From the IMG/VR virus record IMGVR_UViG_3300023252_000178, positions 1 to 33,495 of that record: 33,495 nucleotides of DNA. The stretch is one strand, 5' to 3'. Below the pieces are notes generated by a model. It did no database searches. It saw only the letters and a program-made list of their open reading frames with translations, and was not told the origin of the DNA. Shown one piece after another: positions 4,276-33,495 of the stretch; position 1 is the stretch's first letter, and every line of letters starts with the position of its first letter. The DNA comes from a virus (lineage: Duplodnaviria > Caudoviricetes). The position numbers and the translations under genes are program-made.

Positions 4276-4874
4276 GCCTGCGCCCTCTTCAGTTCTCTGG
4301 TCAGTGCCCTGTAATGCGCGGTAAGCGCCTTCAGGTCGTCTATCGTGTATTTCTTTGGCTCGTGTGGGCCTTCCAGCCATTCCACCTTCTCAGCGCCGAT
4401 CCGCTGCACCAGGCAGATCCGGTAGTTCACGATGTCGCCGGACTTGTGCGTGTTGCATGGCGAGCACTGGAGGTGGCAGTTCAGCGGCTCAAAGCGGAGC
4501 TCTGGTGCACTCGCTACCGTGCGGTAATGTCCGGCGTCATTCTTGCCCTGGTGGAACCGGCCGCAACTGATGCAGGGCTGCGCGGCGTCTCGGGCACGCA
4601 CCCATGCGTTGAATGCGACTTGAGTGTCCTTCATGTGGTCCGCGCGGGTTTTCAGCTTCTCCTTGCGCGCCTTGACGTCCTGACGGTCCAGGTCAGCCAG
4701 CGCCTTTCGGACTTTCGCCTGATTCACTGGGTTCTTGGCTTCAGCCAGTGCACAGGATGGGCTGCACACTTTCTGGCCCAGGCGCTGGGGAATGAAATTG
4801 GTGCCACAGGCGACATTCACGCAGCGCTTATTCCGGCGCGTCGGCGCCGACTTCTTGATTGCCTGTCCGATCAC
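4272..4874 (-). CDS. ninG: NinG/Rap family recombination endonuclease
   Basis: CSPSCA N-terminal Zn motif; RARDAAQPCISCG...DAGHYR...LRFEPLNCHLQCSPCN HNH-like core. Confidence 0.92.
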   Translation of the reverse strand: MIGQAIKKSAPTRRNKRCVNVACGTNFIPQRLGQKVCSPSCALAEAKNPVNQAKVRKALADLDRQDVKARKEKLKTRADHMKDTQVAFNAWVRARDAAQPCISCGRFHQGKNDAGHYRTVASAPELRFEPLNCHLQCSPCNTHKSGDIVNYRICLVQRIGAEKVEWLEGPHEPKKYTIDDLKALTAHYRALTRELKRAQA

Positions 4875-4969
4875 AGCCCAACTCCGAACTGAACTGCGTT
4901 AGGGTTGGAGTGGTAGCTGTGCTCGAGCATTGTGGAGATGGCGCTGATGAGGGCCTTAATGGTCTTCAT
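4871..4969 (-). CDS. Small hypothetical protein (32 aa)
   Basis: MKTIKALISAISTMLEHSYHSNPNAVQFGVGL; 4-nt start/stop overlaps on both sides. Confidence 0.5.
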   Translation of the reverse strand: MKTIKALISAISTMLEHSYHSNPNAVQFGVGL

Positions 4970-5292
4970 GCTGGCACTGCCTCCTTTTTTGGAGTGCCGA
5001 TCCCTTGCACCAAGTCTTGAAAAGTCATATCGCCAGGGAAATGCTTCTTGCGCAAAGCGCCTTCATACCAAAGCGCCGACGCTTCGTTCCCGTCACCATC
5101 TTTTAGGACCAGATTCACGCCCTCAAGGAAGTAGCCAAGAATTTCTGCCCGTAGCGCCTGACCAAAAACCGGATCTAGATACACTTCATGGGCATGAATG
5201 CATTGAGACACGGCGTATTCTCCGTTGAGGTGCGGATAATCACGGCACTGAAGAATTACAACCTCGCCAACGCTGAACTTGAACTGGCTCAT
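4966..5292 (-). CDS. Hypothetical phage protein (nin region)
   Basis: ATGA-coupled ORF; FKFSVGEVVIL SH3-like start. Confidence 0.7.
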   Translation of the reverse strand: MSQFKFSVGEVVILQCRDYPHLNGEYAVSQCIHAHEVYLDPVFGQALRAEILGYFLEGVNLVLKDGDGNEASALWYEGALRKKHFPGDMTFQDLVQGIGTPKKEAVPA

Positions 5293-5759
5293 GCCGCCAC
5301 CTCGCCCAGCAGGTCGCCGAAGTACACGCCCTTGCTGCTGAAGTCCGCCACGATGCGATCGGTATAGGCGATGCCCTGGGCGCGGTTGAACAGCCGTGTG
5401 ACCGGGAAACCGTCAGGGCCGAACAGAGTGCAGGCTCCCATCAGATCAAGCTTGTCGGCGTAGGACAGGTGCCGCATGGTCTTGAACCAGCTCGCCCGAA
5501 AGTCCTCGTCGTCAGCGGTAAGGATCGCGACGCCGAAGTGCAGCTTGCAGTAACGCCGCGCGTCCTCGATGTCACCGATCTGGGTCATCTCGGCGATACG
5601 CTTGTAGAACGCGAACCACAATGCGTTCTGATCCAGCGTGCGGTCCTTGCCCGGGCGCAGCGAGACCACGACAAACTTCTTGTCGCGGTACATCGCCGTC
5701 ATGCGGGTGATCGCTTCGATGAGCTTGGACTGGCAGTTGATGCTGATCTTGTCAGTCAT
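5289..5759 (-). CDS. NinB-like protein
   Basis: RTLDQNALWFAFYKRIA matches the NinB RSxxQNxxxW pattern; nin-region position. Confidence 0.7.
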   Translation of the reverse strand: MTDKISINCQSKLIEAITRMTAMYRDKKFVVVSLRPGKDRTLDQNALWFAFYKRIAEMTQIGDIEDARRYCKLHFGVAILTADDEDFRASWFKTMRHLSYADKLDLMGACTLFGPDGFPVTRLFNRAQGIAYTDRIVADFSSKGVYFGDLLGEVAA

Positions 5760-5869
5760 TTGAACAGCACCCCTGAAGGCTTTGGAGCAACGCGCTCAAC
5801 TTTGTGATGCAGGCCATAACCGGTCACAAGGACGATGATGGTCAGAACGATCCAGATCCGGTTGGTCAT
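5756..5869 (-). CDS. Small membrane protein (37 aa)
   Basis: MTNRIWIVLTIIVLVTGYGLHHKVERVAPKPSGVLFK; ATGA overlaps at both ends. Confidence 0.55.
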   Translation of the reverse strand: MTNRIWIVLTIIVLVTGYGLHHKVERVAPKPSGVLFK

Positions 5870-6651
5870 GCTGTAGTCCTCCGCCTCTGAAGCTCTTCGA
5901 TAGCTGCCATGTGCTTGATCACGCGCTCATTGAGGTCGCGACGCCCCTGGCGGCGACGGTGAGCCTCGACCAGCTTGCGTTTGGTGTTTTGCAGGTGCAT
6001 GGCCTGCTTCAGCTCGCGGATTTTGAGAGCGACGTTTGCGGACGGCTTAGCTACGGTGCCGGTCAGCAAGCCCGCGATAGCGCGTCCGTCTTCGGTAACA
6101 GGCTCGTGGCTCATGTCGGCGATCAGCAGCTGCGCACGCTCTTGCGGAATACGCTGTAGCTCGGCGGCCTTGTTGATGGCGGCCACGCGGCGACCAGCGT
6201 CGAACCCGAGCGAGATGTGCCAGTTCACCGCCTGGGCGTTGGTGCGAGCCTCAGTGACGAACCGGTCGTAAGCGCTGATGAACGCCATGCGGGCGCCGAT
6301 CTTGTCGCCCGCGTCCAGCACCGGGCGAGCAGCATTCAGGGCCAGTTGGATTTCGTCGGTCATCACGACAGTGTCGAATTCATCGTTCGAGGCCAGCGCG
6401 ATCGCCCATGCCTCATCACGACCTGGACGGCCGTCCTTGACCTCGATCCGCTGCAGAATCGCTTGCAGCGAAAGTTTGCCAGCCACTTCGCGACGGCAAG
6501 CCTGCAGCGCGTCGATCAGGGTCCCGGCGTCGTAGATTTCAAGGTCATTGGCGATCATCGCGGCGGCAGTGGCCGACAGAGTTGAACCCATTGCCTCGGC
6601 TGTCGCGCACAGTGCATCAACGAGGCCCAGCTTATCGGCGGAGGAAAGCAT
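5866..6651 (-). CDS. Replication-associated protein (helicase-loader/P position)
   Basis: Overlaps the end of the initiator gene; PGRDEAWAIAL motif; function inferred from position. Confidence 0.65.
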   Translation of the reverse strand: MLSSADKLGLVDALCATAEAMGSTLSATAAAMIANDLEIYDAGTLIDALQACRREVAGKLSLQAILQRIEVKDGRPGRDEAWAIALASNDEFDTVVMTDEIQLALNAARPVLDAGDKIGARMAFISAYDRFVTEARTNAQAVNWHISLGFDAGRRVAAINKAAELQRIPQERAQLLIADMSHEPVTEDGRAIAGLLTGTVAKPSANVALKIRELKQAMHLQNTKRKLVEAHRRRQGRRDLNERVIKHMAAIEELQRRRTTA

Positions 6652-7606
6652 TCTGGACGCCCCCGCTCAGGATGATCGCCTTAGCCTGTTCGGCGGCGTT
6701 CATGTTGGCCTGGGTGTTTTCCATCTGGCGGGCCGTGGTCCCGTTCATCTGGGTCTTGGTGGCCCACTGGGTGTGGTAGGCCTCGGCCTTGGCGATCAGG
6801 TTGGTCAGGCTGTGGCAGTCGTTGATCAGGCGGGCGTCGTTGATGGTCAGGTAGTACGCCGCGACACTGTGGGCGACATCGATGCCGAGACGGTCAACCA
6901 GCTTGCCGAGGATTCCACCAGCGGTAGCGTTCCAGACCGGCCAGCACTGGTAACGCTTGCGGTAGGCCATGGCGTAGTTGGCCCATGCCTTGAAGGTTTT
7001 GCAGGTCTGGTCTTTGGGGCCCGGCATGTCGGCAGGGATCTCGACACGGGGAGCGTCTGGGCGATCCACCACAAGCACCAAACTCCCGGACTGGGTCGGC
7101 AGCGCCGCACCCTCCGGCAAGTCCTGACTTGTACCCTGACTGGTATCCTGATGATTGGTATCCTGATTTGTCGGAGATTTTTCCGACCCTTGCTCGGATT
7201 TTTTTCCGACCTTGCTCGGAGATTTATCCGAGGTAGATCGGATATTTTTCCGACCTTTGTTTTCAGGTGGGGTCGGATATTTTTCCGACCCATCGAGTTT
7301 CTGGTTCCATTCGGCAGCTTTCGCGGTCAGGCGGAAAAGCGTGATGTTCGCGGTGCTCGACAACTGGATCAAACCTGCTTCGTCCAGCGCCTTCAGCATG
7401 CGGTAAGCGGTGTCAGGTTTATCCGTGAGCAGCGGGAGTTCTTCGACGATCTTCGCCTTGCTCAGCGCAAAGAAAACGCCGTCGTCAGTGGTGACCGGCT
7501 TGGTCCAGCTCGGGCAGCCGTAGATGAAGGCGAACAGCAAGGCTTGCTGAGAATTCAGCCCCCACTCCAACGCTTTCACCTGGTTGATGGTTACGGTGAA
7601 TTGCAT
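6632..7606 (-). CDS. Phage replication initiator (O-like)
   Basis: N-terminal wHTH-like region; central low-complexity linker encoded by iterons. Confidence 0.85.
   Translation of the reverse strand: MQFTVTINQVKALEWGLNSQQALLFAFIYGCPSWTKPVTTDDGVFFALSKAKIVEELPLLTDKPDTAYRMLKALDEAGLIQLSSTANITLFRLTAKAAEWNQKLDGSEKYPTPPENKGRKNIRSTSDKSPSKVGKKSEQGSEKSPTNQDTNHQDTSQGTSQDLPEGAALPTQSGSLVLVVDRPDAPRVEIPADMPGPKDQTCKTFKAWANYAMAYRKRYQCWPVWNATAGGILGKLVDRLGIDVAHSVAAYYLTINDARLINDCHSLTNLIAKAEAYHTQWATKTQMNGTTARQMENTQANMNAAEQAKAIILSGGVQNAFLRR
7121..7290. repeat. Replication origin: five palindromic iterons plus adjacent short repeats
   Basis: TCGGA-N6-TCCGA at 7171, 7194, 7216, 7238, 7273; TGGTATCCTGA at 7141 and 7156. 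Confidence 0.88.
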
Positions 7607-7607
7607 G

Positions 7608-8408
7608 TCAGGCCTTCCCGACCAATTTGGCCAATTCGAGGAAGCGATCGACGTACCAGTGAGGCTGCGTTTCGCGGGGGGATTGGGGGCTGGTGAGGTT
7701 CTTGCCGTAGGCGAGGCCCTTATCAGTGATCGACCAGAACGGAACGACCTCCTGCTTCGAGTTCTTGCGGGTCAACACCTTGAGGTAGCCGGCGGCTTCG
7801 AGCTTCTTGTTGAAGGACACGACTGAGCCGCCCAGGCCGAAGTCTTTCAGCAGTGCGGTCGCAGACTTGGTGGGCATCGAAGAGCCGCCAGCGGAATCCG
7901 GCGCGGCATCGACGGCGTAGCCTGGGAGAAACTTCGGATCAAGGCCGTTGTTCTCGGCGATCTTCGTCAGCATGAGCATCTGGCTGGACGGTGCAGGCTT
8001 CAGCAGGCGCGTGAAGCACTCCATGATGGCGATCTCGCCGATCACCTTCGTTCCATTCGCCGTGACGGCTTCTCGTGACGCGGACTGCTGCTCGAGTTCG
8101 TGCCAGCGACGGATGACCCTCATGCGCAGGCCGGCGCTGTAACCGGTGAGCAAGCAGTCTGTGTGCTCACGATCAAGCAGATATTCGGTTTGCTCGCGGT
8201 TACGGCCGTCGAGGTAGATGTGAGCAAAACTGCTCACATTAACTTTCAGCTCGGAAGCCATGGTTTGGATGTCGCGCTTGACGTCTGGATGACGCTTACC
8301 AGTCAGGTTCGCGATCTCACGCGAAGACATAGTGCGCGCCACGTTTTGTTGAGTATGAAAACGTGGCGCGGCTTCTGGGGTATTGATCAAGGTTTGATGG
8401 CTGTGCAT
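7608..8408 (-). CDS. Rha-family regulator fused to an antirepressor-type C-terminal domain
   Basis: MSSREIANLTGKRHPDVKRDI (Rha N-terminus); SATALLK...FNKKLEAAGYL...WSITDKGLAYG C-terminus; GAGG SD before 8408. Confidence 0.85.
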   Translation of the reverse strand: MHSHQTLINTPEAAPRFHTQQNVARTMSSREIANLTGKRHPDVKRDIQTMASELKVNVSSFAHIYLDGRNREQTEYLLDREHTDCLLTGYSAGLRMRVIRRWHELEQQSASREAVTANGTKVIGEIAIMECFTRLLKPAPSSQMLMLTKIAENNGLDPKFLPGYAVDAAPDSAGGSSMPTKSATALLKDFGLGGSVVSFNKKLEAAGYLKVLTRKNSKQEVVPFWSITDKGLAYGKNLTSPQSPRETQPHWYVDRFLELAKLVGKA

Positions 8409-8974: not shown

Positions 8975-9181
8975 ATGACCAACTCTTCCGAACTGCAAGG
9001 CGAGATAACCGCCCTCTGCTGCTTTGTGGGTGCCTTGGCATCCACCCTGCCCCTGTCTTCTCAGATGAGGCTCTGGCCTGCGTTCGAGCAGAAGGCCAGT
9101 CAGTTGCGTGATCAGTTGAGCCAAGAGGCTCTGCGCGGCTTCGAACTGGCGACGATCTCGCTCAGCTCGAAGCGCGGTTAG
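8975..9181 (+). CDS. Hypothetical 68-aa protein, convergent with cro
   Basis: AAGGA SD; 4-nt tail-to-tail overlap with cro. Confidence 0.6.
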   Translation: MTNSSELQGEITALCCFVGALASTLPLSSQMRLWPAFEQKASQLRDQLSQEALRGFELATISLSSKRG

Positions 9182-9372
9182 GCTGCCGTCCTCTGGGATG
9201 GAAACGGACGCTGCTCCAGCGCCGTAAGACTTCCGTCCTCATTACAGAAAACAACGACGTCTCGGCCGACTCTGATGGCCTTGCTCAAGGCTCCTTGAGT
9301 GCAGCCAAGCATCTGCGCGGCCTTGGTATGGCCGTGCTCTTTTGCGAATTCAGAAAGCGGGATACGGCGCAT
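9178..9372 (-). CDS. cro: Cro repressor (lambda Cro family)
   Basis: MRRIPLSEFAKEHGHTKAAQMLGCTQGALSKAIRVGR...RPFPS closely parallels lambda Cro; GAGGA SD. Confidence 0.92.
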   Translation of the reverse strand: MRRIPLSEFAKEHGHTKAAQMLGCTQGALSKAIRVGRDVVVFCNEDGSLTALEQRPFPSQRTAA

Positions 9373-9403
9373 TGCGACGTCCTCTATGTGTTTGCTCAAT
9401 GCC

Positions 9404-9475
9404 AGTATGACCGCCGGTATTGTTTGCAGTCAATACCGGCGATATTGGTTGCGCGAATACCGCAGGTATTATGAT
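9404..9475. promoter_or_regulatory. OR region: three 15-bp operators, pR and pRM
   Basis: ATGACCGCCGGTATT 9407-21, AATACCGGCGATATT 9432-46, AATACCGCAGGTATT 9456-70; pR (-) TTGACT-18-CATACT; pRM -10 TATGAT 9470-75. Confidence 0.88.
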
Positions 9476-9481
9476 TTGTGG

Positions 9482-10288
9482 ATGACTAAAGACTCTCGAA
9501 GACTGCCGCTTGCCGATTGGCAACTGGAAGACAGCGACCGCCTGAAGGAAATATTTCAGAGCAAGCGCGCGGCCTTAAAGCTCACTCAGGAAAAGCTCGC
9601 TGAGGGGTTGGGTGACGGCGTTACGCAGGGCGCGATCAGCCATTTCATGAATCGCAGGACTGCTCTCAGCCTCAAGGCTGTTGCAGTGTTTGCGAAAATG
9701 CTTGATGTGAAAATCGAAGACATAAGCCCTACCTTGGCGCGCCAGATCGGCGAGCTGGGCCTTGCCGCTCCTGCCGACGCGAAACATTCGCTCAGCACAA
9801 ACTCAAGAACAGCCGCAAACACCCCCTTCCCTGTCGGCGGCGACACTGAAGCGGCCGATGACAAGTACGCTCACATTCCTCAGTACAGCGCAAAGGCTGC
9901 TGCTGGTCTGGGTCACGAAAACCCGCACGTTGAAACACTGGCCACGCTCGCTTTCAAGCTGGACTGGCTGCGTACCAAGGGTGTGAAGGCTGAAAACCTG
10001 CTGGTGATCTATGCCGAGGGCGAGAGCATGTGGCCGACCATCAATGACCATGACGTGCTCTTGGTGGATAAGTCGAAGATCGAGCCGGCCGACGGGCATG
10101 TGTTTGTCCTGACGAGCACCGATCGAGGCGCGATCGTGAAGCGCCTGGTCCAGTCACCTCTGGGTGGATGGATCATCCGGAGCGACAACGAGGACAAGGA
10201 AGAGTACGGCGATCTGCTGCTGTCGCGGAGTGACGTGAACGAGCATCGCATCATTGGCAGAGTCATATGGCGTGGCGGTGACTTGTGA
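9482..10288 (+). CDS. cI: CI repressor (HTH + S24 peptidase)
   Basis: LTQEKLAEGLGDGVTQGAISHFM HTH; AAAG cleavage site; GESMWPTI catalytic Ser; IVKRL Lys; divergent from cro. Confidence 0.95.
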   Translation: MTKDSRRLPLADWQLEDSDRLKEIFQSKRAALKLTQEKLAEGLGDGVTQGAISHFMNRRTALSLKAVAVFAKMLDVKIEDISPTLARQIGELGLAAPADAKHSLSTNSRTAANTPFPVGGDTEAADDKYAHIPQYSAKAAAGLGHENPHVETLATLAFKLDWLRTKGVKAENLLVIYAEGESMWPTINDHDVLLVDKSKIEPADGHVFVLTSTDRGAIVKRLVQSPLGGWIIRSDNEDKEEYGDLLLSRSDVNEHRIIGRVIWRGGDL

Positions 10289-10317
10289 TTCCTTGTAAAT
10301 ATACCTAGGACGATATA

Positions 10318-10740
10318 TTGTACGAGCTTATCGTTGGTGATGAGGCCACGCAGGATCTAGAGGATCTTTTGCTTCTGAAGCCGGAAGCCGGCTACCGGTT
10401 GGCTGTCCTGCTTGAAGAGATGTCCGGCAGCCAGGATCTCTTGGAGAAGCTGTCGTGGGACCACTACGGGGGAAAGCCTCACGCCCCAGAAAAGGGAGCG
10501 ATCCTTAGCGTTGCCAAATGGCTCGGCCCATACAGGAACGGAAAGAATATTTGGCGGCTAAGGGATTTTGAGCTGTCAAAGCTTGGTCATGAGTATCGAA
10601 TTATCTACGCATACATCCCGGCAAAAGATCTCTATTACGTACTCGCGATTGTCGAAAGGGCATTCAACTATGATTCAGCACATCCAATCTCACAGCGCGT
10701 CTTCGCAACCTATGACCGCCTTGAGGCAGACGGCTGGTAG
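10318..10740 (+). CDS. RelE/HigB-like toxin
   Basis: YELIVGDEATQDLEDL...IWRLRDF...EYRIIYAY...YYVLAIVER fits the RelE/ParE pattern; TTG start with AGGA SD. Confidence 0.75.
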   Translation: MYELIVGDEATQDLEDLLLLKPEAGYRLAVLLEEMSGSQDLLEKLSWDHYGGKPHAPEKGAILSVAKWLGPYRNGKNIWRLRDFELSKLGHEYRIIYAYIPAKDLYYVLAIVERAFNYDSAHPISQRVFATYDRLEADGW

Positions 10741-11152
10741 TCCATCAGGCACTGCTACCACTGGCGTTGTGGTGAGAATAGAAAAGGCAGTTCTGCCGAT
10801 CCCATTGGCGCAGAAGAACACTGCTTTTTCGAAACTAATGAATCGTCTCAATTCCGCCGATGAGCATAAAGCGGGCATGGCTGAAGCTAGGACCTGGGTT
10901 GCCGAAAAGGTTTTGGCTGAGGAAGGCGATACCATCAGAACCCTCCGACTCAAGAAAGGGCTGAATCAAACCCAGTTCGCCTCTCTGTTAGGCACCACCC
11001 AGGCGCAGGTTGCACGCATTGAGAAAGGAAACACAGACCCTCAAAGGTCGACGTGTAAGAAGCTGCGCGAGGTCCTTGGTATCTCGGCAGACAAGCTAGA
11101 AGAAATCATGGACCGACAAGAACAGGCTTACCAATTGAAGGCAAGAAAATGA
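10670..11152 (+). CDS. XRE-family HTH antitoxin (HigA-like); start uncertain (10670/10712/10838)
   Basis: TIRTLRLKKGLNQTQFASLLGTTQAQVARIEKGNTDP is a classic HTH_3; lies downstream of the toxin. Confidence 0.8.
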   Translation: MIQHIQSHSASSQPMTALRQTAGSPSGTATTGVVVRIEKAVLPIPLAQKNTAFSKLMNRLNSADEHKAGMAEARTWVAEKVLAEEGDTIRTLRLKKGLNQTQFASLLGTTQAQVARIEKGNTDPQRSTCKKLREVLGISADKLEEIMDRQEQAYQLKARK

Positions 11153-11583
11153 CACGCTTCGCTCATGCTATTTATTGCGACGACATCAGAAACGAGGTCA
11201 ATGGCAAGCATTCTCTGATGGGTATCTTCGGAAACCTGATGTATCTGAGCGCCTTCCCTTCAGTACTCCCTAAGCTGTGCGCGGTGATCACTGCGTGCAC
11301 AACCATAGATCGACCGTTTGAGTCGATCACGTTTACAGGAACGATGGATGGCACCGTTGTTTTTGAAATGGGTCTTGATAAGGATCAAATGGAGCAGATG
11401 CGTAAGGCCGGCGGCGTAATTGAAGATGCTAAGGGGTCCGAAGCAAAGGCGATGATCGTCCTTTCACCAATGCACATTACTGGCCCAACAAAGCTGGAGA
11501 TAACCATCCTGGCTGATGGGGAGACAATCCCTTGCGCCGGGCTCCAGATTTCGCAAGCGCCGGAAGGTTTAGCAATTTTGTGA
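11149..11583 (+). CDS. DUF6941-like beta-rich protein
   Basis: AIYCDDIRNEVNGKHSLMGIF N-terminus recalled as the DUF6941 signature; ATGA overlap with the antitoxin. Confidence 0.7.
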   Translation: MTRFAHAIYCDDIRNEVNGKHSLMGIFGNLMYLSAFPSVLPKLCAVITACTTIDRPFESITFTGTMDGTVVFEMGLDKDQMEQMRKAGGVIEDAKGSEAKAMIVLSPMHITGPTKLEITILADGETIPCAGLQISQAPEGLAIL

Positions 11584-11599
11584 GCAAACGAGTCTATCC

Positions 11600-11624
11600 A
11601 AAGCCCGCCTTGAGCGGGCTTTTT
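11600..11624 (+). terminator. Intrinsic terminator ending the cI-accessory transcript
   Basis: AAAGCCCGC-CTTGA-GCGGGCTTT-TT. Confidence 0.8.
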
Positions 11625-11696: not shown

Positions 11697-11948
11697 ATGG
11701 CAAAGCAGAAATCCCAAGCACCGAAAGAACCGACTTCCTACGAATTGCTCGGCATGCGCGTACAGCGCGCCATCAACACGCCCAAGGCTCAGTTATCGAA
11801 ATCCGTACTGCTCGAACGATCTGCGAATGATGATCCGGCCGACTGGGATCGCATCCTGGATGAGATCGCTGAGAACGACAACGTGACCATCGCCCATCGA
11901 GACGACGGCCTGATACAGCTCTTCTGGACTGTGCCGAAAGAAGATTGA
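11697..11948 (+). CDS. DUF1654-family protein
   Basis: SYELLGMRVQRAINTPKAQ...DWDRILDEIAENDNVTIAHRDDG; strong AAGGAGG SD. Confidence 0.8.
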   Translation: MAKQKSQAPKEPTSYELLGMRVQRAINTPKAQLSKSVLLERSANDDPADWDRILDEIAENDNVTIAHRDDGLIQLFWTVPKED

Positions 11949-12004: not shown

Positions 12005-12652
12005 CTACTTATCCTGGAGGACAACGATCCCTTTGAGCTTCTGTTTCTTTTCCAGGCTTTCACGCCTTGCTTCTGCCACATTGCGGTCGTCAAATGGCCC
12101 TGCAAAAACCCTGATAACGCCATCCTTCTCTGATCGGTAAGCATTGACGCCTGCAGACTGGAGCTCTCTTTCGACTGCAAAGGCTTTGCTTGTGCTGCTC
12201 AGCGAAGCGATCTGAATCGACCACTTGCCAGTATTTGCCTGGCTTGCTGACGTCGCGGCTAGCTCCCCTAAATCACACACGCCAGACCAGTAGTACTTCT
12301 GAAAAAATGTCCTTCCATCCCCAGAATCATGCGCATTAATCCCCTCCTCAAGCTGAACATCGCTCACGCTAATGCTGCCCTGCTTGGAATAGCTGATGTT
12401 CGCCGAAAAGCGGCGCTCGCCCGAATAGCCGCCGAACGAATTCTTAGAATTCACCGCCCCGCACAAACGGCCATAGTGTGTATCTCCGATGGACTTATCC
12501 TCCTTCAAGAAAGCACCGCTGAACTTCGCGGAATCCGAATCCTTTAGCACTGAGGCGACCATATCCTGGCCCTTGCTAACCGCCATCCCCTGATCCATAT
12601 CACAACCTGATAGCGCAAGCATCGCGCAAATCATTAATCCATGAGCACGCAT
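12005..12652 (-). CDS. Lipoprotein with a C-terminal SPOR domain
   Basis: Lipobox LALSG-C; CGAVNSKNSFGGYSG motif; WSIQIASLSS...RVFAGPFDDRNVAE (SPOR); GAGGA SD. Confidence 0.85.
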   Translation of the reverse strand: MRAHGLMICAMLALSGCDMDQGMAVSKGQDMVASVLKDSDSAKFSGAFLKEDKSIGDTHYGRLCGAVNSKNSFGGYSGERRFSANISYSKQGSISVSDVQLEEGINAHDSGDGRTFFQKYYWSGVCDLGELAATSASQANTGKWSIQIASLSSTSKAFAVERELQSAGVNAYRSEKDGVIRVFAGPFDDRNVAEARRESLEKKQKLKGIVVLQDK

Positions 12653-12737
12653 ACGCGGCCCTCCTCTGGCCAAATTCGAGCCCGGATATTACCAGTTTAC
12701 CTTTCTGAGGCAGTTTCAATGCTTTTGAAAAAAATAC

Positions 12738-21337: not shown

Positions 21338-21464
21338 CGATTGGCTCCAGACTTAGCTCAGCAACAATGAACCGCCGACCCCATGCCGGTCACCACGTAT
21401 AGCCCACCACCAACCTATTCGCCACCGAACTTTCGGAGGCTTGATTCTGCACGGAGAAAAAAGC

Positions 21465-22205
21465 ATGAAAGTCGCAACTGACGTCATGGCGCTGCTGAGC
21501 GCATCTAGAACTGAAGGCAACAAACTGTTCATAACCGGCGGCCAGCTTGAGCGCGGGCTTTATTCCCGCCTAGACAAAACACTGAAGGCCGCTGGCGGGA
21601 AATGGAACACCAAAGCGAAAGCCCACCTGTTCGACGGCGATGCGGCTGACGCGATCGAGAACATCATCATGACCGGCGAAGTCACCGTGCCTCAGGACTT
21701 CGGCTACTTCCCTACTCCGCCACCAGTCGTAGAGAAGCTGCTGGAGCTTGGACAGATCTCCGAAGGGATGGTCGCGCTGGAGCCATCCGCCGGACGTGGT
21801 GCAATTGCTTCGGCGCTGGAGGCGGCTGGCCTGGTGGTGGACTGCGTTGAGTTGCTTCCAGAAAACGCCAAACATCTCCACGGTTCAGGTTACCGCTCGG
21901 TTCACCTCGGCGATTTTCTGGCCGTAGAGCCCGCCCCTCAATACGATCGTGTGGTGATGAACCCGCCGTTCGACAAGAAGCGCAGCGATATTCACCACGT
22001 CCTGCACGCCCTGAAATTCTTGAAACCGCGTGGACTGCTGGTTGCAGTTATGCCGACTGGCGTCATGTTCCGGGAGGATGCATTGTCGCGTGACTTCCGA
22101 GGTATCGTTTCGGCGCGCAGCGGCAGCATCTTGAATTTGCCGGATGCCTCGTTTAAAGCGTCCGGCACCTCGGTTAGCACCTGCATCGCGGTCATACCGG
22201 CCTGA
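21465..22205 (+). CDS. Amino (N6-A/N4-C) DNA methyltransferase-like SAM-dependent enzyme
   Basis: YFPTP; LEPSAGRGAI (motif I); VMNPPF (motif IV). Confidence 0.88.
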   Translation: MKVATDVMALLSASRTEGNKLFITGGQLERGLYSRLDKTLKAAGGKWNTKAKAHLFDGDAADAIENIIMTGEVTVPQDFGYFPTPPPVVEKLLELGQISEGMVALEPSAGRGAIASALEAAGLVVDCVELLPENAKHLHGSGYRSVHLGDFLAVEPAPQYDRVVMNPPFDKKRSDIHHVLHALKFLKPRGLLVAVMPTGVMFREDALSRDFRGIVSARSGSILNLPDASFKASGTSVSTCIAVIPA

Positions 22206-23553: not shown

Positions 23554-24477
23554 ATGCCCACTGCAATCGATTTGTTCGCCGGTCTCGGCGGATGGTCTAC
23601 CGGTGCCCGCGCGGCGGGTGTCGAAGTCCTCTGGGCTGCAAACCACTGGCCGGTCGCGGTCGAGTGGCACGCCGCCAACCACCCGGACACCCAGCACATC
23701 TGCCAAGACCTGCACCAAGCCCGCTGGGAGCAAGTGCCCGCCCACGACATGCTGCTGGCGTCGCCGTGCTGCCAAGGTCATTCGAAGGCTCGCGGCCAAG
23801 CAAACGGAAACCCGCAGCACGATGCCTCACGCTCTACAGCCTGGGCTGTTGTGTCGGCTCTGGAGTTTCACCGGCCGGGCGTGGCATTGGTTGAAAACGT
23901 TCAGGAGTTCACCGACTGGGCGCTCTACCCTGCCTGGGTCTCCGCTGTTCAGGCGCTTGGATACCAGGTCGCGCCGCACGTCGTGGACTGCGCAGATCTG
24001 GGCGTTCCTCAGCACCGCGTCAGGCTGTTCCTAGTGCTGACCCGCAGCAGGGCGCCTTTGATGCTCGAGCTGCACCGGCGCCAGCATGTGCCAGCCGCCA
24101 GCTTCCTTGACTTCAACGCTGGGAAATGGTCGCCGATCGAGCGGCCGGGCCGCGCGCAGGCCACGCTCAATCGAGTTCGTAACGGGCGCGAGCGCTTCGG
24201 CGACCAGTTCATCATGCCCTACTACGGCAAAGGCTCCGGGCTGACCGGGCGCGGCATGGACCGGCCTATCGGGACGATAACCACGCGCGACCGATGGGCT
24301 TTGGTGCGCGGTAACGAGATGCGAATGGTGAGCGCCGACGAGGCCTTGGCCGCCCAGTCCTTCCCCGCCGACACCCTGCGACCCAAGAGCCACAAGCTGA
24401 CCATGCACATGGCCGGCAACGCTGTTCCCCCACTCGCTGGCCAGCGCGTAATCGAAGCGCTGATGGCCGCCGCCTGA
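23554..24477 (+). CDS. C5 DNA cytosine methyltransferase
   Basis: DLFAGLGG (I), SPCCQGHS (IV), ENV (VI), PQHRVRLF (VIII), GNAVPP (X). Confidence 0.95.
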   Translation: MPTAIDLFAGLGGWSTGARAAGVEVLWAANHWPVAVEWHAANHPDTQHICQDLHQARWEQVPAHDMLLASPCCQGHSKARGQANGNPQHDASRSTAWAVVSALEFHRPGVALVENVQEFTDWALYPAWVSAVQALGYQVAPHVVDCADLGVPQHRVRLFLVLTRSRAPLMLELHRRQHVPAASFLDFNAGKWSPIERPGRAQATLNRVRNGRERFGDQFIMPYYGKGSGLTGRGMDRPIGTITTRDRWALVRGNEMRMVSADEALAAQSFPADTLRPKSHKLTMHMAGNAVPPLAGQRVIEALMAAA

Positions 24478-27485: not shown

Positions 27486-27698
27486 ATGAAGCGCGAACTG
27501 ATCAAAATCAGCGAGTTCCAGCGCCGCCGCTGGGGTGAAAACGGCACACCGCCCTGCTCCCAGGCGATCCGCAACTACATTCGAGACGGCAAGCTTCCGG
27601 GCGAGCAGATCGGCAAACTCTGGTATATCGACTGGGCGGCCTTCAACAAGTCCGCCGGCAACGAGCTCGTAGCGATGGTATTGAAAGGAGCTGCATGA
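27486..27698 (+). CDS. xis: Excisionase
   Basis: Small winged-helix-like AIRNYIRDGKLPGEQIGKLWYID; overlaps the int start. Confidence 0.8.
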   Translation: MKRELIKISEFQRRRWGENGTPPCSQAIRNYIRDGKLPGEQIGKLWYIDWAAFNKSAGNELVAMVLKGAA

Positions 27699-28810
27699 TG
27701 GTCCCTCGGCCGCGCAACAAGTCGAACAGAGGCTTGCCGCCTAACCTCTACCTGGATGACCGGCGCGGGACTTACCGGTACCGCAGGCCGACGGACGGCA
27801 AATGGTTTCCGTTCGGGCCCGACCGGGTTAAAGCGGTCGACGCGGCCAAGCAGCTCAACCTCGCGTTCATGCAGGGCGCTGACCTCGTTGGCGCGGTGAT
27901 GGGCGAATCTGCCGAGCTGTTCACCGCGTTCCTGACCCAGTATGAGGAAAAGGTTCTGCCGCCCCGCGAACTCTCCGCGGGGACACTCGGCTTATACGCA
28001 GTCCACTTCCGGCGCTTCCGGAAGGAATTTGAAGGAAAGGCAATCGATCAGATCACAATCCGCATGATCGCCGAGCTGCTGGACGCAGTGACACCTCGGA
28101 CCGCAAACCAGTACCGCGCGCTGCTGATCGACATATTCAATCATGCCGCGGCGAAGGGTCTGTGCCCTGACAACCCCGCCATGAGCACGATCAGCCGAAT
28201 CGAGAAGAAGGCCCGCAAACGGCACACGATCGAAGGCCTGAAAGCCATTCGGGAAAAATCCCCGGCCTGGCTGCAGAACGCAATCGACCTGGCGCTGATC
28301 ACCGCGCAGCGGCGCACTGACATCCTGTCCATGAAGTTCGAGGACGTGAAGGATGGCTACCTGTACGTGGTCCAGCAGAAAACCGCCAAGGCGTCAGACA
28401 TGGCCTGGATCAGATTCAAGGTGACGGCCGAGCTTCAGCGGGTCATAAGTCATTGCCGAGACAACGTCGTGTCGCCGTTCCTCATCCACCGGCGACCAGA
28501 TCGGAAGAAGCAGAAGCAAGCGGAGAAGAAAGAGCACTGGACCAAGATCGAGGAGCGGTATCTGACCAGGGCTTTCAAGGAGGCGCGCGAAGCGGCGGAT
28601 TGTTACAAGGGATGGAAGGAAGAAGAGATGCCGGGCTTCCATGAGGTCAGAGCGCTATCGCTGCACCTGTACAAGAAAGCCGGAAAGGATGGGCAGAAGA
28701 TCGCCGGCCACGCCAGCGAGGAGATGACCAAAAACTACCAGAAGGACCATGCGGAAGTGGTCTGGTCAGACGCAGTTCCGGACCTCGATATCAGCGAAAT
28801 CGCCGGATAG
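27695..28810 (+). CDS. int: Lambda-type tyrosine integrase
   Basis: Arm-binding N-terminus (LPPNLY...YRYRRP); TAQRRTDI (R), QQKT (K), FHEVRAL (H-x-x-R), AGH, TKNY (Y). Confidence 0.95.
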   Translation: MMVPRPRNKSNRGLPPNLYLDDRRGTYRYRRPTDGKWFPFGPDRVKAVDAAKQLNLAFMQGADLVGAVMGESAELFTAFLTQYEEKVLPPRELSAGTLGLYAVHFRRFRKEFEGKAIDQITIRMIAELLDAVTPRTANQYRALLIDIFNHAAAKGLCPDNPAMSTISRIEKKARKRHTIEGLKAIREKSPAWLQNAIDLALITAQRRTDILSMKFEDVKDGYLYVVQQKTAKASDMAWIRFKVTAELQRVISHCRDNVVSPFLIHRRPDRKKQKQAEKKEHWTKIEERYLTRAFKEAREAADCYKGWKEEEMPGFHEVRALSLHLYKKAGKDGQKIAGHASEEMTKNYQKDHAEVVWSDAVPDLDISEIAG

Positions 28811-28841
28811 TTTTGCGCCAGTTTTGCGCGGATTTTGCGCG
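28811..28841. repeat. Three tandem TTTTGCGC repeats (probable Int arm-type sites)
   Basis: TTTTGCGC at 28811, 28822, 28833 (11-bp period) between int and att. Confidence 0.7.
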
Positions 28842-28854
28842 GGCCAAAAATGAA

Positions 28855-28890
28855 AAAGGGAATCAAGCCTGTAAGTGGCTGATTCCCTTT
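28855..28890. terminator. Hairpin between int and the tRNA fragment
   Basis: AAAGGGAATC-A-AGCC-TGTAAGT-GGCT-GATTCCCTTT. Confidence 0.65.
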
Positions 28891-28898
28891 ACAAAATA

Positions 28899-28943
28899 TG
28901 GTCGGGACGGAGTGATTCGAACACTCGACCCCTAGCACCCCAT
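28899..28943 (-). other. att core: 3' half of tRNA-Pro(GGG), anticodon loop to CCA; 5' half absent
   Basis: Reverse complement ATGGGGTGCTAGGGGTCGAGTGTTCGAATCACTCCGTCCCGACCA has the TTCGAAT T-loop and CCA; no D-arm or 5' acceptor strand to the right. Confidence 0.9.
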
Positions 28944-29103
28944 CTCCTTTTTCATACTTCTTGAAAGCTTCCAAAATTTTACTCTGGATTTTTATAAGCT
29001 AGTATTTACTTGAGCTCCAGCGGTGTTCTGCTCTACGAGAGTCCAGCAACGTCCATCAAGAGCCGACGTTTTTGTGGGGGTAAAAGTAGGGGGAGTCCGT
29101 TTC

Positions 29104-30558
29104 ATGGCCAAAATCACCATCAAAGAACTCGAGTCGCTGACCGCCAACGATGCCGGCCGAATCCTTAGGGAGGATGGCAATCTGGCCGGTCGAATCTCAG
29201 TCCGTAAGGACGGTGTGTCGGTCAGCTTTTTCTATCGCTATCGCTGGGGCGAGCAGAATAAAGAGTACTCCTGCGGGTCCTGGCCGCGCAAATCCCTGAC
29301 GGACATCCGCAAGGCGCGCAACCAGGCCCGTGCGCTCATCGATGAGCAGATCAATCCCAACGAGCACAAGAAAACCGCCAAGGCACAGGCTCATGCCGCG
29401 ACGAACGCAAAAGCCGATCAGGAAAAATCGACGAAGGTCCAAACTCTGACCGTCCAGGATCTGGCCAAGGCCTGGCTGCTGGATGGCGTCGCGCGTAAAG
29501 ACGGCAATGCCGAGTTGCAACGGCGCTTTAACAAGGACCTTTTGCCAGCACTCGGTAGGACAGCGGTGAACAATGTTTCCGAACACGATGTTCGGGCGCT
29601 AATCCGGGCCGTGGTCAACCGCGGCGCTCACCGGCAAGCCATCAGTTTCTTCGCCGACCTCACCCAGATGTTTAGCTGGGCTAGAAAGCGTCAGCCCTGG
29701 CGGACCTTATTGATCGAGGGCGATCCGACTGAGTTGGTCGACATTTCCCCTCTGATCCCCGCCGACTACGAGGCGGAAAGAAGCCGTATCCTTTCCCCGG
29801 CGGAGCTGTTGGAACTGCACAACCGTTTCCAGCAAATGACCGCCGATTACGACGCCCTCCCCGCGGGCCAAAAATACGACGGCATTCGTCCGCTAAAGAA
29901 GGAAACGCAGCTCGCGCTCTGGATTAGCCTGGGCACGCTGTGCCGAATTGGTGAATTGCTGCAGGCCGAATGGAAAAATGTCGATCTGGACCAGCAAACC
30001 TGGTTCCTCCCCAGCGAAAACGTCAAAGGCACCCGCGGCAAGAAACAGGACCACCATGTCTTCCTCTCCTCCTTCGCCTTGCATTTCTTTCAGGAACTCA
30101 AGACCCTGACGGGAGACTCCCTGTGGTGCTTTCCGAACAAGCAGGATGATGGGCATGTGGACGTGAAAGTGGTGAGCAAGCAGGTGGGTGACCGTCAAGC
30201 CCGGTTCAAAAACCGCAAGGCCCTCTCCAGACGGTGCCATGACGATACCCTGGTCCTTGCCGACGGCCAAAACGGCGACTGGACGCCGCATGACTTGCGC
30301 CGTACGGGGGCGACCATGATGCAAGCCTTAGGCGTTAGCCTGGACGTCATTGATCGCTGCCAAAATCATGTACTGGCCGGCTCTCGGGTGAGACGCCACT
30401 ACTTGCATCACGACTATGCCGACGAGAAGAAAAACGCCTGGAACCTGCTGGGCGATCGACTCAGTGCGGTGCTGTCCTCGACCTACGAGCACACGCCAAA
30501 CGAGTCGATATTGTCTTTTCCAGTGTACACGACGAAAGAGACCCGGGCGTCCTCATAG
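29104..30558 (+). CDS. P4-like tyrosine integrase with N-terminal arm-binding domain
   Basis: FFYRYRWG...CGSWPRKSLTDIR; LCRIGEL (R); TPHDLRRTGAT; QNH; HYLHHDY. Confidence 0.92.
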   Translation: MAKITIKELESLTANDAGRILREDGNLAGRISVRKDGVSVSFFYRYRWGEQNKEYSCGSWPRKSLTDIRKARNQARALIDEQINPNEHKKTAKAQAHAATNAKADQEKSTKVQTLTVQDLAKAWLLDGVARKDGNAELQRRFNKDLLPALGRTAVNNVSEHDVRALIRAVVNRGAHRQAISFFADLTQMFSWARKRQPWRTLLIEGDPTELVDISPLIPADYEAERSRILSPAELLELHNRFQQMTADYDALPAGQKYDGIRPLKKETQLALWISLGTLCRIGELLQAEWKNVDLDQQTWFLPSENVKGTRGKKQDHHVFLSSFALHFFQELKTLTGDSLWCFPNKQDDGHVDVKVVSKQVGDRQARFKNRKALSRRCHDDTLVLADGQNGDWTPHDLRRTGATMMQALGVSLDVIDRCQNHVLAGSRVRRHYLHHDYADEKKNAWNLLGDRLSAVLSSTYEHTPNESILSFPVYTTKETRASS

Positions 30559-30694
30559 GGCTATTTCACCCTGCGTTCACCGGAATTTAACGTCCCCACG
30601 CTGTGATCCACAATTGGCGATGAGCAAAGGTTGCAGATTGCATGTACACATTCGTGAGCTTTACCGTCAAGGTACTGTTCGAAAAAGTATGGCA

Positions 30695-31453
30695 AACTGC
30701 ACCGACTCCTCCACCATCCGGATGGCCGCTACAAAATCTTTGGGGCGATGCAGCAATAACTCGTTTTTCAAAATCCCGTTCACACGCTCAGCCAACCAAC
30801 GCATTTTGGTAGCAGTCGTAGCAATCGGTCATTGAGCAGGTGATGCCGTGCTTGGCATGCAGCCGCTGATAAAGCTCGGAGCAGTATTGGACGCTTCTAT
30901 CCGAGTGATGCACTAGGCGTTGCTCCGTTGTCCGCTGCCTGAGGGCTTTGTTGAACGCCTGGTTCACCGATTCGATGTGCAAGCTTTCATGGACATGGTG
31001 CTCCACGATTTTTCGGGAGTACACATCGGTGATCAAACTCAGATAAGCCACACCCGTTTGCGTCGATAAGTAGGTGATGTCCGCACCCCATACTTGCTCT
31101 GGCGCCTTGGCGACTACCTGAAACGGTCCATCTTTGAGCAGGTTTGGACGCCGGCGAAAGCGATGAGGGCTGTCTGTCGTTTTGTGACAGGCCCGTCTGC
31201 GGGGAACCAGTTCGCGCCGATCTCGCAAGCTGTCGAATAAACGGCCTCGACCAACCTTGACGGACACTTCTGGCTCAGCGCGCATTAGATTGTGGAGTTT
31301 TCGGGTGCCAAGGCGGGGTTGCCTAAGTCGCTTTTCCCTCACGAATCCCATCACTTCCTGTGCATAACGGGCCCGGGCATCACATGCCCGGTTGCGCTTG
31401 TAATAAGCCGGACGGAAAATCCTCATGAACTGGCAAGCCCTACTGATACTCAC
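30695..31453 (-). pseudogene. IS3 orfB (DDE transposase), frameshifted and truncated
   Basis: VWGADITY, LITDVYSRKIV, HHSDR..QYCS; a 4-bp CAAC duplication at ~30793-30800 shifts NALAERVNGILKNE out of frame. Confidence 0.85.
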
Positions 31454-31998: not shown

Positions 31999-33495
31999 TC
32001 ATTTCATCGTCGGCATAGAGAACTCGACTCCCTCCCGAACTCCCGAAGATGGCCAGCGCTGAGTGACCGTTTTACGCCTGCTATAGAAACGAACGGCATC
32101 CGGCCCGTAGGCATGCAAATCGCCAAATAACGAACGTTTCCAGCCACCAAAGCTATGATAGGCGACAGGTACAGGTAGCGGTACGTTGACACCGACCATG
32201 CCGACCTTGATGTTGTCAGAGAAGTATCGGGCAGCTTCACCATCGCGAGTGAAGATACAGGTGCCATTACCGTATTCATGAGCATCGATCAGTTGCATCG
32301 CCTCTTGCATGCTCTGCGCACGTACGATCAACAGCACCGGCCCGAAGATCTCTTCCTTGTAGCAGCGCATGCCGGGTTTGACTTGATCAATCAATGTCCC
32401 CCCAACAAAAAAACCGCTCTCGCAAGCTGAAACCTGAATGCTTCGACCATCCACTACGACCTCTGCGCCCTCCTCTTCTGCACTGTCGATGTACCCGATC
32501 ACTTTTTGCTGATGTTGACGAGTGATCAAAGGGCCAAAGTCGTTGCTCTTGTCTTGATAGGCGCCGACCTTGAGACTGGTCATTGCTTCGCGCATTTTGC
32601 TGATCAAGGCATCGGCTGTTGCATCACCTACTGTGACCGCTACCGACAGAGCCATGCATCGTTCCCCTGATGATCCAAATGCAGCCCCTACCAACTGGTT
32701 GACCGCATTATCGATGTCCGCATCTGGCATGACGATGGCGTGGTTTTTTGCTCCACCCAATGCTTGGCAACGTTTGCCATTTGCCGCAGCTGTCCGGTAG
32801 ATGTACTCAGCGATTGGTGTCGAGCCTACAAAACTTACCGCCTGGACACGATGGTCGTGGAGTAAGGTATCAACGGCTTCCTTGTCACCATTGACCACGC
32901 TCATGACGCCATTCGGTAAACCAGCTTCCTGCAGCAGTTGGGCGATGAACAGGGTTGAACTTGGATCGCGCTCGGAAGGCTTCAGGATGAAACAGTTACC
33001 GCAGGCAATCGCCATAGGAAACATCCACAGTGGCACCATCGCTGGGAAGTTGAATGGCGTGATTCCAGCAACTACACCCAGCGGTTGAAACTCACTCCAA
33101 GAATCGATATTGGGGCCAACATTTTTGCTGTGTTCCCCTTTGAGCAACTCGGGCACACCACACGCATATTCAACATTTTCGATGCCCCGCTGAAGCTCGC
33201 CCATTGCATCGTGGACAATTTTCCCGTGCTCTTCACCAATCATTTGGCAGATACGTTCGGCATTCTGCTCAAGCAGTTCTTTGAAGCGAAACATCACCCG
33301 CGCGCGCTTGATAGGTGGTGTGTTGCGCCACTCAGGAAAAGCCGCTTCAGCGGCAGCAATGGCTTTTTCGACCGTTAGTTTCGAGGCCAGCGCAACCTGT
33401 TTGGTGACTTCGCCCGTCGCAGGATTGAACACGTCCTGAGTGCGCTCAGTGTCAGTGACAATCTGGCCGTTGATCAGATGACCTACAGTAATCAT
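31999..33495 (-). CDS. mmsA: CoA-acylating methylmalonate/malonate-semialdehyde dehydrogenase (start codon at window edge)
   Basis: ITPFNFPAMVPLW, KPSERDP, SFVGSTP, LGGAKNH, GSSGERCMA (catalytic Cys), EEIFGP, VNVPLPVP. Confidence 0.93.
   Translation of the reverse strand: MITVGHLINGQIVTDTERTQDVFNPATGEVTKQVALASKLTVEKAIAAAEAAFPEWRNTPPIKRARVMFRFKELLEQNAERICQMIGEEHGKIVHDAMGELQRGIENVEYACGVPELLKGEHSKNVGPNIDSWSEFQPLGVVAGITPFNFPAMVPLWMFPMAIACGNCFILKPSERDPSSTLFIAQLLQEAGLPNGVMSVVNGDKEAVDTLLHDHRVQAVSFVGSTPIAEYIYRTAAANGKRCQALGGAKNHAIVMPDADIDNAVNQLVGAAFGSSGERCMALSVAVTVGDATADALISKMREAMTSLKVGAYQDKSNDFGPLITRQHQQKVIGYIDSAEEEGAEVVVDGRSIQVSACESGFFVGGTLIDQVKPGMRCYKEEIFGPVLLIVRAQSMQEAMQLIDAHEYGNGTCIFTRDGEAARYFSDNIKVGMVGVNVPLPVPVAYHSFGGWKRSLFGDLHAYGPDAVRFYSRRKTVTQRWPSSGVREGVEFSMPTMK

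Follow-up and report, generated by a model that had tools for sequence, protein, structure and literature searches.

A conserved cassette of a RelE/HigB-like toxin gene, an HTH antitoxin gene and a DUF6941 gene next to cI in a lambdoid phage: a candidate TAC-like system

In phage lambda, the slot right after cI holds rexAB, which is expressed in the lysogen and has an internal promoter, pLIT. The phage record analyzed here (33,495 bases, in the following referred to as the window) carries three small genes at the equivalent position, and the question arises what a toxin-like gene, an antitoxin-like gene and a gene of the DUF6941 family would do there. The surroundings are those of a lambdoid early region, with cro, cI, recT and integrase, and the close homologs bearing names are from Pseudomonas. 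The features concerned are the following:

9178 to 9399, minus strand: cro (Pfam Cro, E 9e-21), context gene
9482 to 10288, plus strand: cI-like repressor with HTH and S24 peptidase domains (Pfam HTH_3 and Peptidase_S24; phrog_4, E 6e-42)
10293 to 10319, plus strand: predicted sigma70-type promoter (-35/-10 match), overlapping the toxin start
10318 to 10740, plus strand: gene 1, RelE/HigB-fold toxin-like, TTG start, 140 aa
10670 to 11152, plus strand: gene 2, XRE-HTH antitoxin-like, probably 160 aa; longest ORF from 10568
10670 to 10804, plus strand: S/T/P-rich N-terminal tail of gene 2 (composition and motif VVVRI), candidate DUF6941-binding element
11149 to 11583, plus strand: gene 3, DUF6941, 144 aa (Pfam and model)
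11600 to 11624, plus strand: intrinsic terminator-like hairpin with T run (folding energy -15.1 kcal/mol)

The start codon of the cI-like repressor is not fixed, a second ATG being found at 9470. Between its stop at 10288 and the start of gene 1 lie 29 nt, where the scan found no terminator-like site and where the fold amounts to only -4.0 kcal/mol. Gene 2 overlaps gene 1, and the start of gene 3 overlaps the stop of gene 2 (ATGA). Behind gene 3, the hairpin at 11600 to 11622 leads into the T residues at 11620 to 11624. The GC content of the cassette is 51.3%, versus 56.5% for the window, and its GC3 values are 55 to 60%, versus 68 to 78% for cI, recT and integrase. An initial annotation of this DNA had described three tightly coupled, more AT-rich ORFs just after cI, a terminator-free gap of 29 nt and a terminator at 11600 to 11624; all of this is borne out, albeit the hairpin is not listed by the terminator consensus scan.

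Some further genes of the window may be mentioned. The cassette is followed by a DUF1654 gene (11697 to 11948) and a convergent SPOR-domain lipoprotein-like gene (12005 to 12673). Two DNA methyltransferase genes are located at 21441 to 22205 and 23554 to 24477 (a weak match to the N6 type and a C5-type match with E 2e-36, resp.). A tandem pair of tyrosine integrases and an rve transposase occupy 27695 to 31453 and are succeeded by a host-like aldehyde dehydrogenase gene at 31999 to 33495; from this arrangement, one end of a prophage is probably contained in the record.

The three gene products

For gene 1, searches of Pfam, NCBIfam and PADLOC returned no match, and phrog_5869, of unknown function, is the only phage family matched. 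A profile search yielded 398 clusters at E <= 0.001, and an alignment of 136 homologs was used for modeling. The best 22 structural matches of the resulting model (pLDDT 96) are all members of the RelE superfamily (RelE, HigB, ParE, YoeB, YafQ), unrelated rows scoring below 5. The top match is 6af3 (Z 9.9, rmsd 2.7, 103 aligned); HigB2 (5mje) and HigB1, the toxin of the M. tuberculosis TAC (7nbu), follow with Z 9.1 and Z 9.0. Comparison of the profile with the PDB gave weak matches to RelE and YoeB (RelE 9g12, E 0.0044), and 28 of the 136 homologs match PF05016 and five match Gp49. The residues R80, R94, Y97, R114, Y118, and R127 are conserved at 90 to 100% among these homologs. By modeled fold and sequence signature, the gene 1 product is a member of the RelE/HigB (BECR-fold) toxin superfamily, in line with the RelE fold initially annotated, and by analogy with the family it is predicted to be a ribosome-dependent mRNase. 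PADLOC (2023) gave a single weak match when searched with the 136 homologs.

The gene 2 product contains an HTH_3 domain (Pfam, E 2.6e-13) and is composed of an N-terminal tail (residues 1 to about 45), a predicted helical middle region and the HTH at about 89 to 143. The longest ORF, starting with TTG at 10568, would encode 194 aa; it was rejected in favor of the ATG at 10670, which is supported by the starts of the homologs. Among 52 distinct homologs of the window's type (type A, see below; the window's own included), an ATG is present at this position in 40 and four codons downstream in the remaining 12, so that gene 2 probably encodes 160 aa. In the former 40, the in-frame ATG is supplied by the codon of the invariant Tyr118 of the toxin; of the 389 other Tyr codons of the toxin homologs, 168 are TAT. 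With this start, the overlap with gene 1 is 71 nt and the tail comprises about 45 aa. Hence, the initially annotated XRE HTH with an N-terminal extension overlapping the toxin gene stands, while the start of the protein lies later. A toxin gene in first position followed by an overlapping XRE-HTH antitoxin gene is the arrangement of a HigBA-type II TA system.

Ser/Thr account for 24% and Pro for 8% of the first 45 residues of the type-A antitoxins, as compared to 12% and 3% of the remainder, and in the window's tail these residues include no aromatic one. The conservation of the first approximately 23 residues is partly imposed by the overlap with the toxin reading frame. Residues 33 to 37 form a short hydrophobic motif of beta type, VVVRI; motifs of this kind occur in 31 of the 52 tails versus a mean of 15 and a maximum of 24 in 200 shuffles, which is modest support, since the motif was picked after viewing the alignment. 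A complex prediction of DUF6941 with residues 1 to 60 of gene 2, run without controls, gave a score of 0.08 and a mark of 0.32, values that speak neither for nor against binding.

Gene 3 is assigned to DUF6941 (PF22091) with 35.1 bits against a gathering cut-off of 27 (E 2e-8), and its atlas matches are DUF6941 clusters only. It was modeled with pLDDT 88 as a beta-sandwich to which a single helix is added, and the best 50 structural matches of this model are Ig/FnIII-like with a highest Z of 7.6; the Ig-like domain of Pycsar AGS-C (9ard; Z 7.0, rmsd 3.3, 107 aligned) is among the tied top matches. These scores are too low for a specific relative to be named. PDE6D and UNC119, the best Foldseek rows, were considered and rejected as too weak (E 2e-3 or worse, TM 0.3 to 0.4), and a PDB sequence search revealed no DUF6941 relative. 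The gene 3 product is thus predicted to be an Ig-like beta-sandwich rather than a SecB protein, as the beta-rich, non-SecB-like protein of the initial annotation had implied. This follows from the positive assignment by Pfam, atlas and model; that SecB is not among the best 50 structural matches nor among the Foldseek rows listed is not proof in itself. In PADLOC (2023), gene 3 is not represented by any model (0 of 48) and gene 2 gave only generic HTH matches, so that the trio has no counterpart in this catalogue.

Linkage and distribution

A scan anchored on DUF6941 by a single motif gave 108 loci, a biased sample that includes several duplicates and three loci with less than 240 nt of upstream DNA. 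The window's type, termed type A, accounts for 57 of them; here, the gene 1 homolog ends 396 to 466 nt ahead of DUF6941 with the HTH gene in between. In 16 loci of type B, a second toxin-like gene and an HTH gene with a C-terminal tail stand in line with DUF6941, while in 18 loci of the Bradyrhizobium type, the type-B pair is convergent and 2 to 3.5 kb away. In the convergent loci inspected, a curlin gene lies between the pair and DUF6941. The 18 loci form one clade in a DUF6941 tree, a quick tree with long branches that was used for this point only. Other loci comprise two with an MqsA-like partner, eight with an HTH gene only, and four with DUF6941 alone. The upstream protein of type B has no Pfam or NCBIfam match; its RelE/Gp49 likeness (atlas 0.79) is a lead only, and its hhalign probability against the type-A toxin profile is 16%.

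An even, unbiased sample of 401 genomes, searched with the DUF6941 profile, provided nine new matches. Eight of these genes are located directly behind an antitoxin-like gene, with four pair types in all: four belong to type A (for one of these the match is short and no toxin was seen), two are of type B, one is MqsA-like, and one follows HicA and a HicB with a C-terminal tail of about 50 aa. The ninth lies behind membrane-protein-like genes. The HicAB form of the trio (locus L164, 1300 to 2463, minus strand) includes a HicA above the Pfam cut-off. In the MqsA-like form (L106, 2957 to 4464; L163, 1183 to 2532), a small unknown gene is followed by a zinc-finger/HTH gene with a C-terminal tail and by a DUF6941 relative; the designation "MqsRA-like" is provisional, since the MqsA match is below the cut-off (E 4e-5 and 0.018, with no PDB match) and the upstream genes gave no meaningful family match. 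Type-B, MqsA-like and HicB partners thus have their tails at the C-terminus. An association of DUF6941 with TA pairs, raised in the initial annotation, is wider than was guessed there. Apart from such pairs, DUF6941 was encountered in 4 of the 108 loci and in locus L167.

Anchoring on the toxin gave a corresponding picture. In a search of 401 genomes, seven matched; all five strong matches are accompanied by HTH and DUF6941 genes (one is the centre genome, and in one the toxin is frameshifted), and the two weak ones resemble unrelated RelE genes. The DNA pattern of promoter plus toxin start retrieved 22 viral loci, each of them with the three genes, and in 20 a co-directional ORF of at least 150 aa ends 57 to 392 nt upstream. 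A cI-like gene precedes the trio in 21 of the 57 type-A loci, a count from a profile by which at least one was missed. These 21 are for the most part viral contigs; the remaining loci are mostly from beta- and gammaproteobacterial genomes, with no cI found in the available flanks.

Two observations on individual loci are added. In L041, L042, L047, L060, L073, and L076 (at about 4600 to 8000) and related alphaproteobacterial loci, the type-B pair and DUF6941 lie within a curli-like cluster with Curlin_rpt and CsgH matches. In L092 (3126 to 3571), L133 (783 to 1173), L069, L033, L039, and L050, the toxin is frameshifted or missing and the HTH and DUF6941 genes are retained.

Among cultured phages, the toxin homolog is present in MD8, phi2, MR13 and MR15, and the full trio is confirmed in MD8 and MR15. 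The homologous trio of MD8 (gp52/gp51/gp50, KX198612; toxin 41% identical) follows cI and is labeled in GenBank as HigB-like toxin, HigA-like antitoxin and putative Ig-domain protein. In the text of the MD8 paper as available, a two-gene HigBA system is predicted by HMM comparison alone and gp50 is not linked to it (PMC8508860). No paper was found for "DUF6941" or "PF22091" in a search that covered neither subscription journals nor bioRxiv supplements, and no such three-gene system is mentioned in the available portions of PMC11980606, PMC10865869, PMC13069673, PMC12186493 and PMC13056530; supplements of large screens may list it. The cassette is real and conserved, and within the scope of this search the three-gene system appears to be new, as initially proposed, the TA pair alone having been noted in print for MD8.

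Promoter and transcription

The predicted promoter consists of a -35 box TTGTAA (10293 to 10298) and a -10 box TATATT (10314 to 10319), the latter extending into the start codon of the toxin. Between the boxes, the spacer is 15 nt in the window (poor) and 16 to 18 nt in most homologs; it contains an imperfect palindrome, which is a candidate operator, as well as a Shine-Dalgarno-like AGGA (10307 to 10310). Across loci, approximately 30 nt ahead of the toxin are conserved, while the DNA further upstream differs. In 46 of 53 scored rows, one of them a perfect 12/12 match, the -10 box of the best sigma70-like match coincides exactly with the toxin start, and a fixed promoter test was positive at 44 of 50 toxin starts versus 0 of 52 starts of gene 2 and 0 of 52 of gene 3. 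Such a promoter would begin the transcript inside gene 1, and therefore mostly antitoxin and DUF6941 would be made. In E. coli hicAB, an autoregulated promoter gives a transcript from which the toxin cannot be translated, and an upstream promoter gives the full message (PMC7167474, in its available part); in the present case, the -10 box is predicted from sequence to overlap the start codon itself.

Not all data agree with an antitoxin-biased promoter. At the codon-1 equivalent, ATG, GTG or TTG is present in 35 of 50 toxin homologs and no standard start codon in 15. Of 42 loci in which the upstream DNA was long enough, 13 have no same-strand ORF of at least 120 aa ending within 400 nt upstream, from which toxin mRNA could be supplied. 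In Neisseria, a distance of 23 nt separates the -10 box from the toxin start codon downstream of it, and the toxin is thus on the transcript. Four contigs from RNA runs (out of 13; three studies), placed on a phi2/MD8-type locus, span cI and the trio, while 1 to 1038 is left uncovered; three bridge the cI-toxin junction, albeit neither starts nor levels can be read from contigs. In one, the break is located 13 nt ahead of the toxin start, whereas according to the promoter model it would be expected within the ORF.

The gonococcal homolog allows for comparison with published transcripts. A relative of gene 1, P0059, matches an N. gonorrhoeae protein (35%, E 8e-9), whose locus has the order cI, toxin homolog (profile E 1.5e-24), HTH gene and DUF6941 relative (hhalign probability 96.7%; no Pfam match). 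From order, lengths and cI start, and not from direct alignment to strain MS11, this trio is NGO0478-0477-0476 of prophage Ngo-phi1 (PMC1931599, as far as available). According to Table S1 of PMC4176332, the three genes share a single transcript, which has a start of its own 14 nt ahead of the toxin, the RPKM values being 3367, 1569 and 1472 for toxin, antitoxin and DUF gene, versus 219 for the separately transcribed cI; the next three downstream prophage genes are at 0 to 2. The same source gives transposon sites of 6 in 452 nt (toxin), 10 in 501 nt (antitoxin) and 2 in 414 nt (DUF gene), i.e., 13, 20 and 4.8 per kb, as compared to 16 for cI and 22 for dnaA, the DUF gene having the lowest density of the protein-coding rows compared. 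All three genes are called transposon-depleted there; this call is weak and noisy, since silent prophage genes at 11 to 34 per kb are also significant and the toxin gene itself is depleted against a simple model. As a side observation, the gonococcal locus (L128, 3950 to 4003) contains a TA-dinucleotide run between the predicted -10 box and the toxin start, whose length could vary between strains.

As regards the comparison with rexAB drawn initially, the slot after cI and expression in the lysogen, the latter seen for the gonococcal homolog, are common to both, and so may be an internal promoter favoring the protective downstream gene or genes, as pLIT does. Expression is not simply cI read-through, given the cassette's own promoter-like element and the own transcript of the gonococcal homolog; most type-A loci are without a cI found upstream, and homology to rexAB is not expected.

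A TAC-like reading and its alternatives

The cassette was compared with the toxin-antitoxin-chaperone (TAC) systems, i.e., HigBA1-SecB(TA) of M. tuberculosis, HigBAC and CmdTAC of E. coli, and those with HicAB or MqsRA. The pairs described for SecB-TACs are HigBA, HicAB and MqsRA, the antitoxin having a tail (PMC5105189), and the tail-dependent control of the antitoxin is ascribed to a SecB-type chaperone in the accounts available (PMC5105189; 10.1101/2024.02.24.581848); recognition of the ChAD in HigBAC depends on aromatics (10.1101/2024.02.24.581848, part of the text). Common to these systems and the cassette are the order toxin-antitoxin-third gene, the RelE/HigB-fold toxin, the HTH antitoxin with an unstructured-looking tail, the prophage location, the three-gene operon (overlapping genes here, a single transcript in the gonococcal homolog), and the reuse of the third gene across HigB-like, HicAB and MqsA-like pairs. 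In contrast to the TACs, the third protein models as an Ig-like DUF6941 instead of a SecB-like protein, the tail is N-terminal, S/T/P-rich and aromatic-poor instead of a C-terminal ChAD with aromatic motifs, and the promoter overlaps the toxin start. Other DUF6941 partners carry C-terminal tails, as TAC antitoxins do. With DUF6941 as third gene and an N-terminal tail, the cassette is TAC-like in layout but not a TAC member.

It is likely, with a probability of roughly 55%, that the cassette also works in a TAC-like manner, with DUF6941 in the place of SecB binding the antitoxin tail and keeping the toxin neutralized until its titration during infection frees the toxin. According to this scenario, gene 1 would encode a ribosome-dependent mRNase, which would be neutralized by the gene 2 product; the latter would also repress the promoter via the palindrome in the spacer. 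DUF6941 would bind the tail, probably by adding its short hydrophobic strand to the beta-sandwich, and would thereby keep the antitoxin soluble and stable. The promoter over the toxin start would yield mostly antitoxin and DUF6941, the toxin being derived from upstream (cI) read-through. Titration of DUF6941 by a protein of the infecting phage, or loss of synthesis, would let the antitoxin fail, and the freed toxin would stop translation and abort the infection. An anti-phage function is suggested by the position, the lysogen expression of the homolog and analogy.

The main argument for the TAC-like role is that DUF6941 partners HigB-like, HicAB and MqsA-like pairs just as SecB does in its TACs. 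The sensing of a phage protein by an Ig-like domain in the bacterial Schlafen pSlfn5 (PMC13056530, available part) also counts in its favor. The Ig-like beta-sandwiches of pSlfn5 and Pycsar AGS-C (9ard) are likewise in an anti-phage setting; unlike DUF6941, they are fused to an effector or a cyclase, and the likeness is generic (Z 7). Against it count the aromatic-free tail in view of the aromatic-dependent ChAD, the fact that no more than 21 of the 57 type-A loci have a cI found upstream, the 35 of 50 standard toxin starts together with the poor 15-nt spacer, and the DUF6941 genes away from pairs.

With much lower probability, but still as the best of the alternatives, DUF6941 would work in the opposite sense and not as a chaperone required for neutralization: as a sensor or adaptor that, triggered by the binding of a phage protein, removes the antitoxin from the toxin or passes it on to a protease, or else as a second antitoxin in contact with the toxin. 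The linkage data would fit equally, direct phage sensing by the Schlafen Ig-like domains (PMC13056530, as above) and the Pycsar AGS-C match (9ard, Z 7.0) would be in keeping with it, and so would a gene 2 tail without ChAD-type aromatics. It is disfavored by the retention of a tail, N- or C-terminal, in four types of antitoxin whose toxins differ, which indicates that DUF6941 has its partner in the antitoxin and not in the toxin; in addition, transposon depletion in the gonococcal trio is strongest for the DUF gene (PMC4176332 Table S1), and this fits a protective role, the data being weak.

It is rather improbable that an ordinary HigBA-like addiction or prophage-stabilizing pair shares its promoter with an independent DUF6941 cargo gene, the tail being a by-product of the overlap. 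DUF6941 stands alone in some loci, gene 2 does overlap gene 1, and the MD8 paper, in its available text, treats the pair as plain HigBA (PMC8508860). Strong toxin homologs without DUF6941 were not seen, however (22/22 and 5/5 carry it); DUF6941 is found behind four different pair types, and the C-terminal tails of the type-B, MqsA-like and HicB partners are unexplained by a toxin overlap. A domesticated non-toxic module of RelE-fold co-regulator, HTH and Ig protein tuning lysogeny or neighboring genes is the least probable: the weak or non-canonical toxin starts, the location next to cI, the high transcription of the gonococcal toxin gene (PMC4176332, Table S1) and the stability of the alphaproteobacterial type in curli gene clusters would suit it, but the RelE-type core Arg/Tyr residues are nearly invariant across the 136 homologs and the HicA partner in L164 is above the Pfam cut-off.

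Beyond the individual cassette, we tentatively propose, at somewhat less than even odds, that DUF6941 is a second, independently evolved Ig-fold chaperone/sensor family that has been grafted via N- or C-terminal antitoxin tails onto HigB-like, HicAB, MqsRA-like and other TA pairs, giving a widespread, parallel class of phage-sensing tripartite systems which includes those of Pseudomonas phages and of the gonococcal prophage. If true, this would mean convergent evolution of tail-dependent antitoxin control by a structurally different protein across toxin families, and it would provide both a first function for DUF6941 and a new swappable phage sensor.
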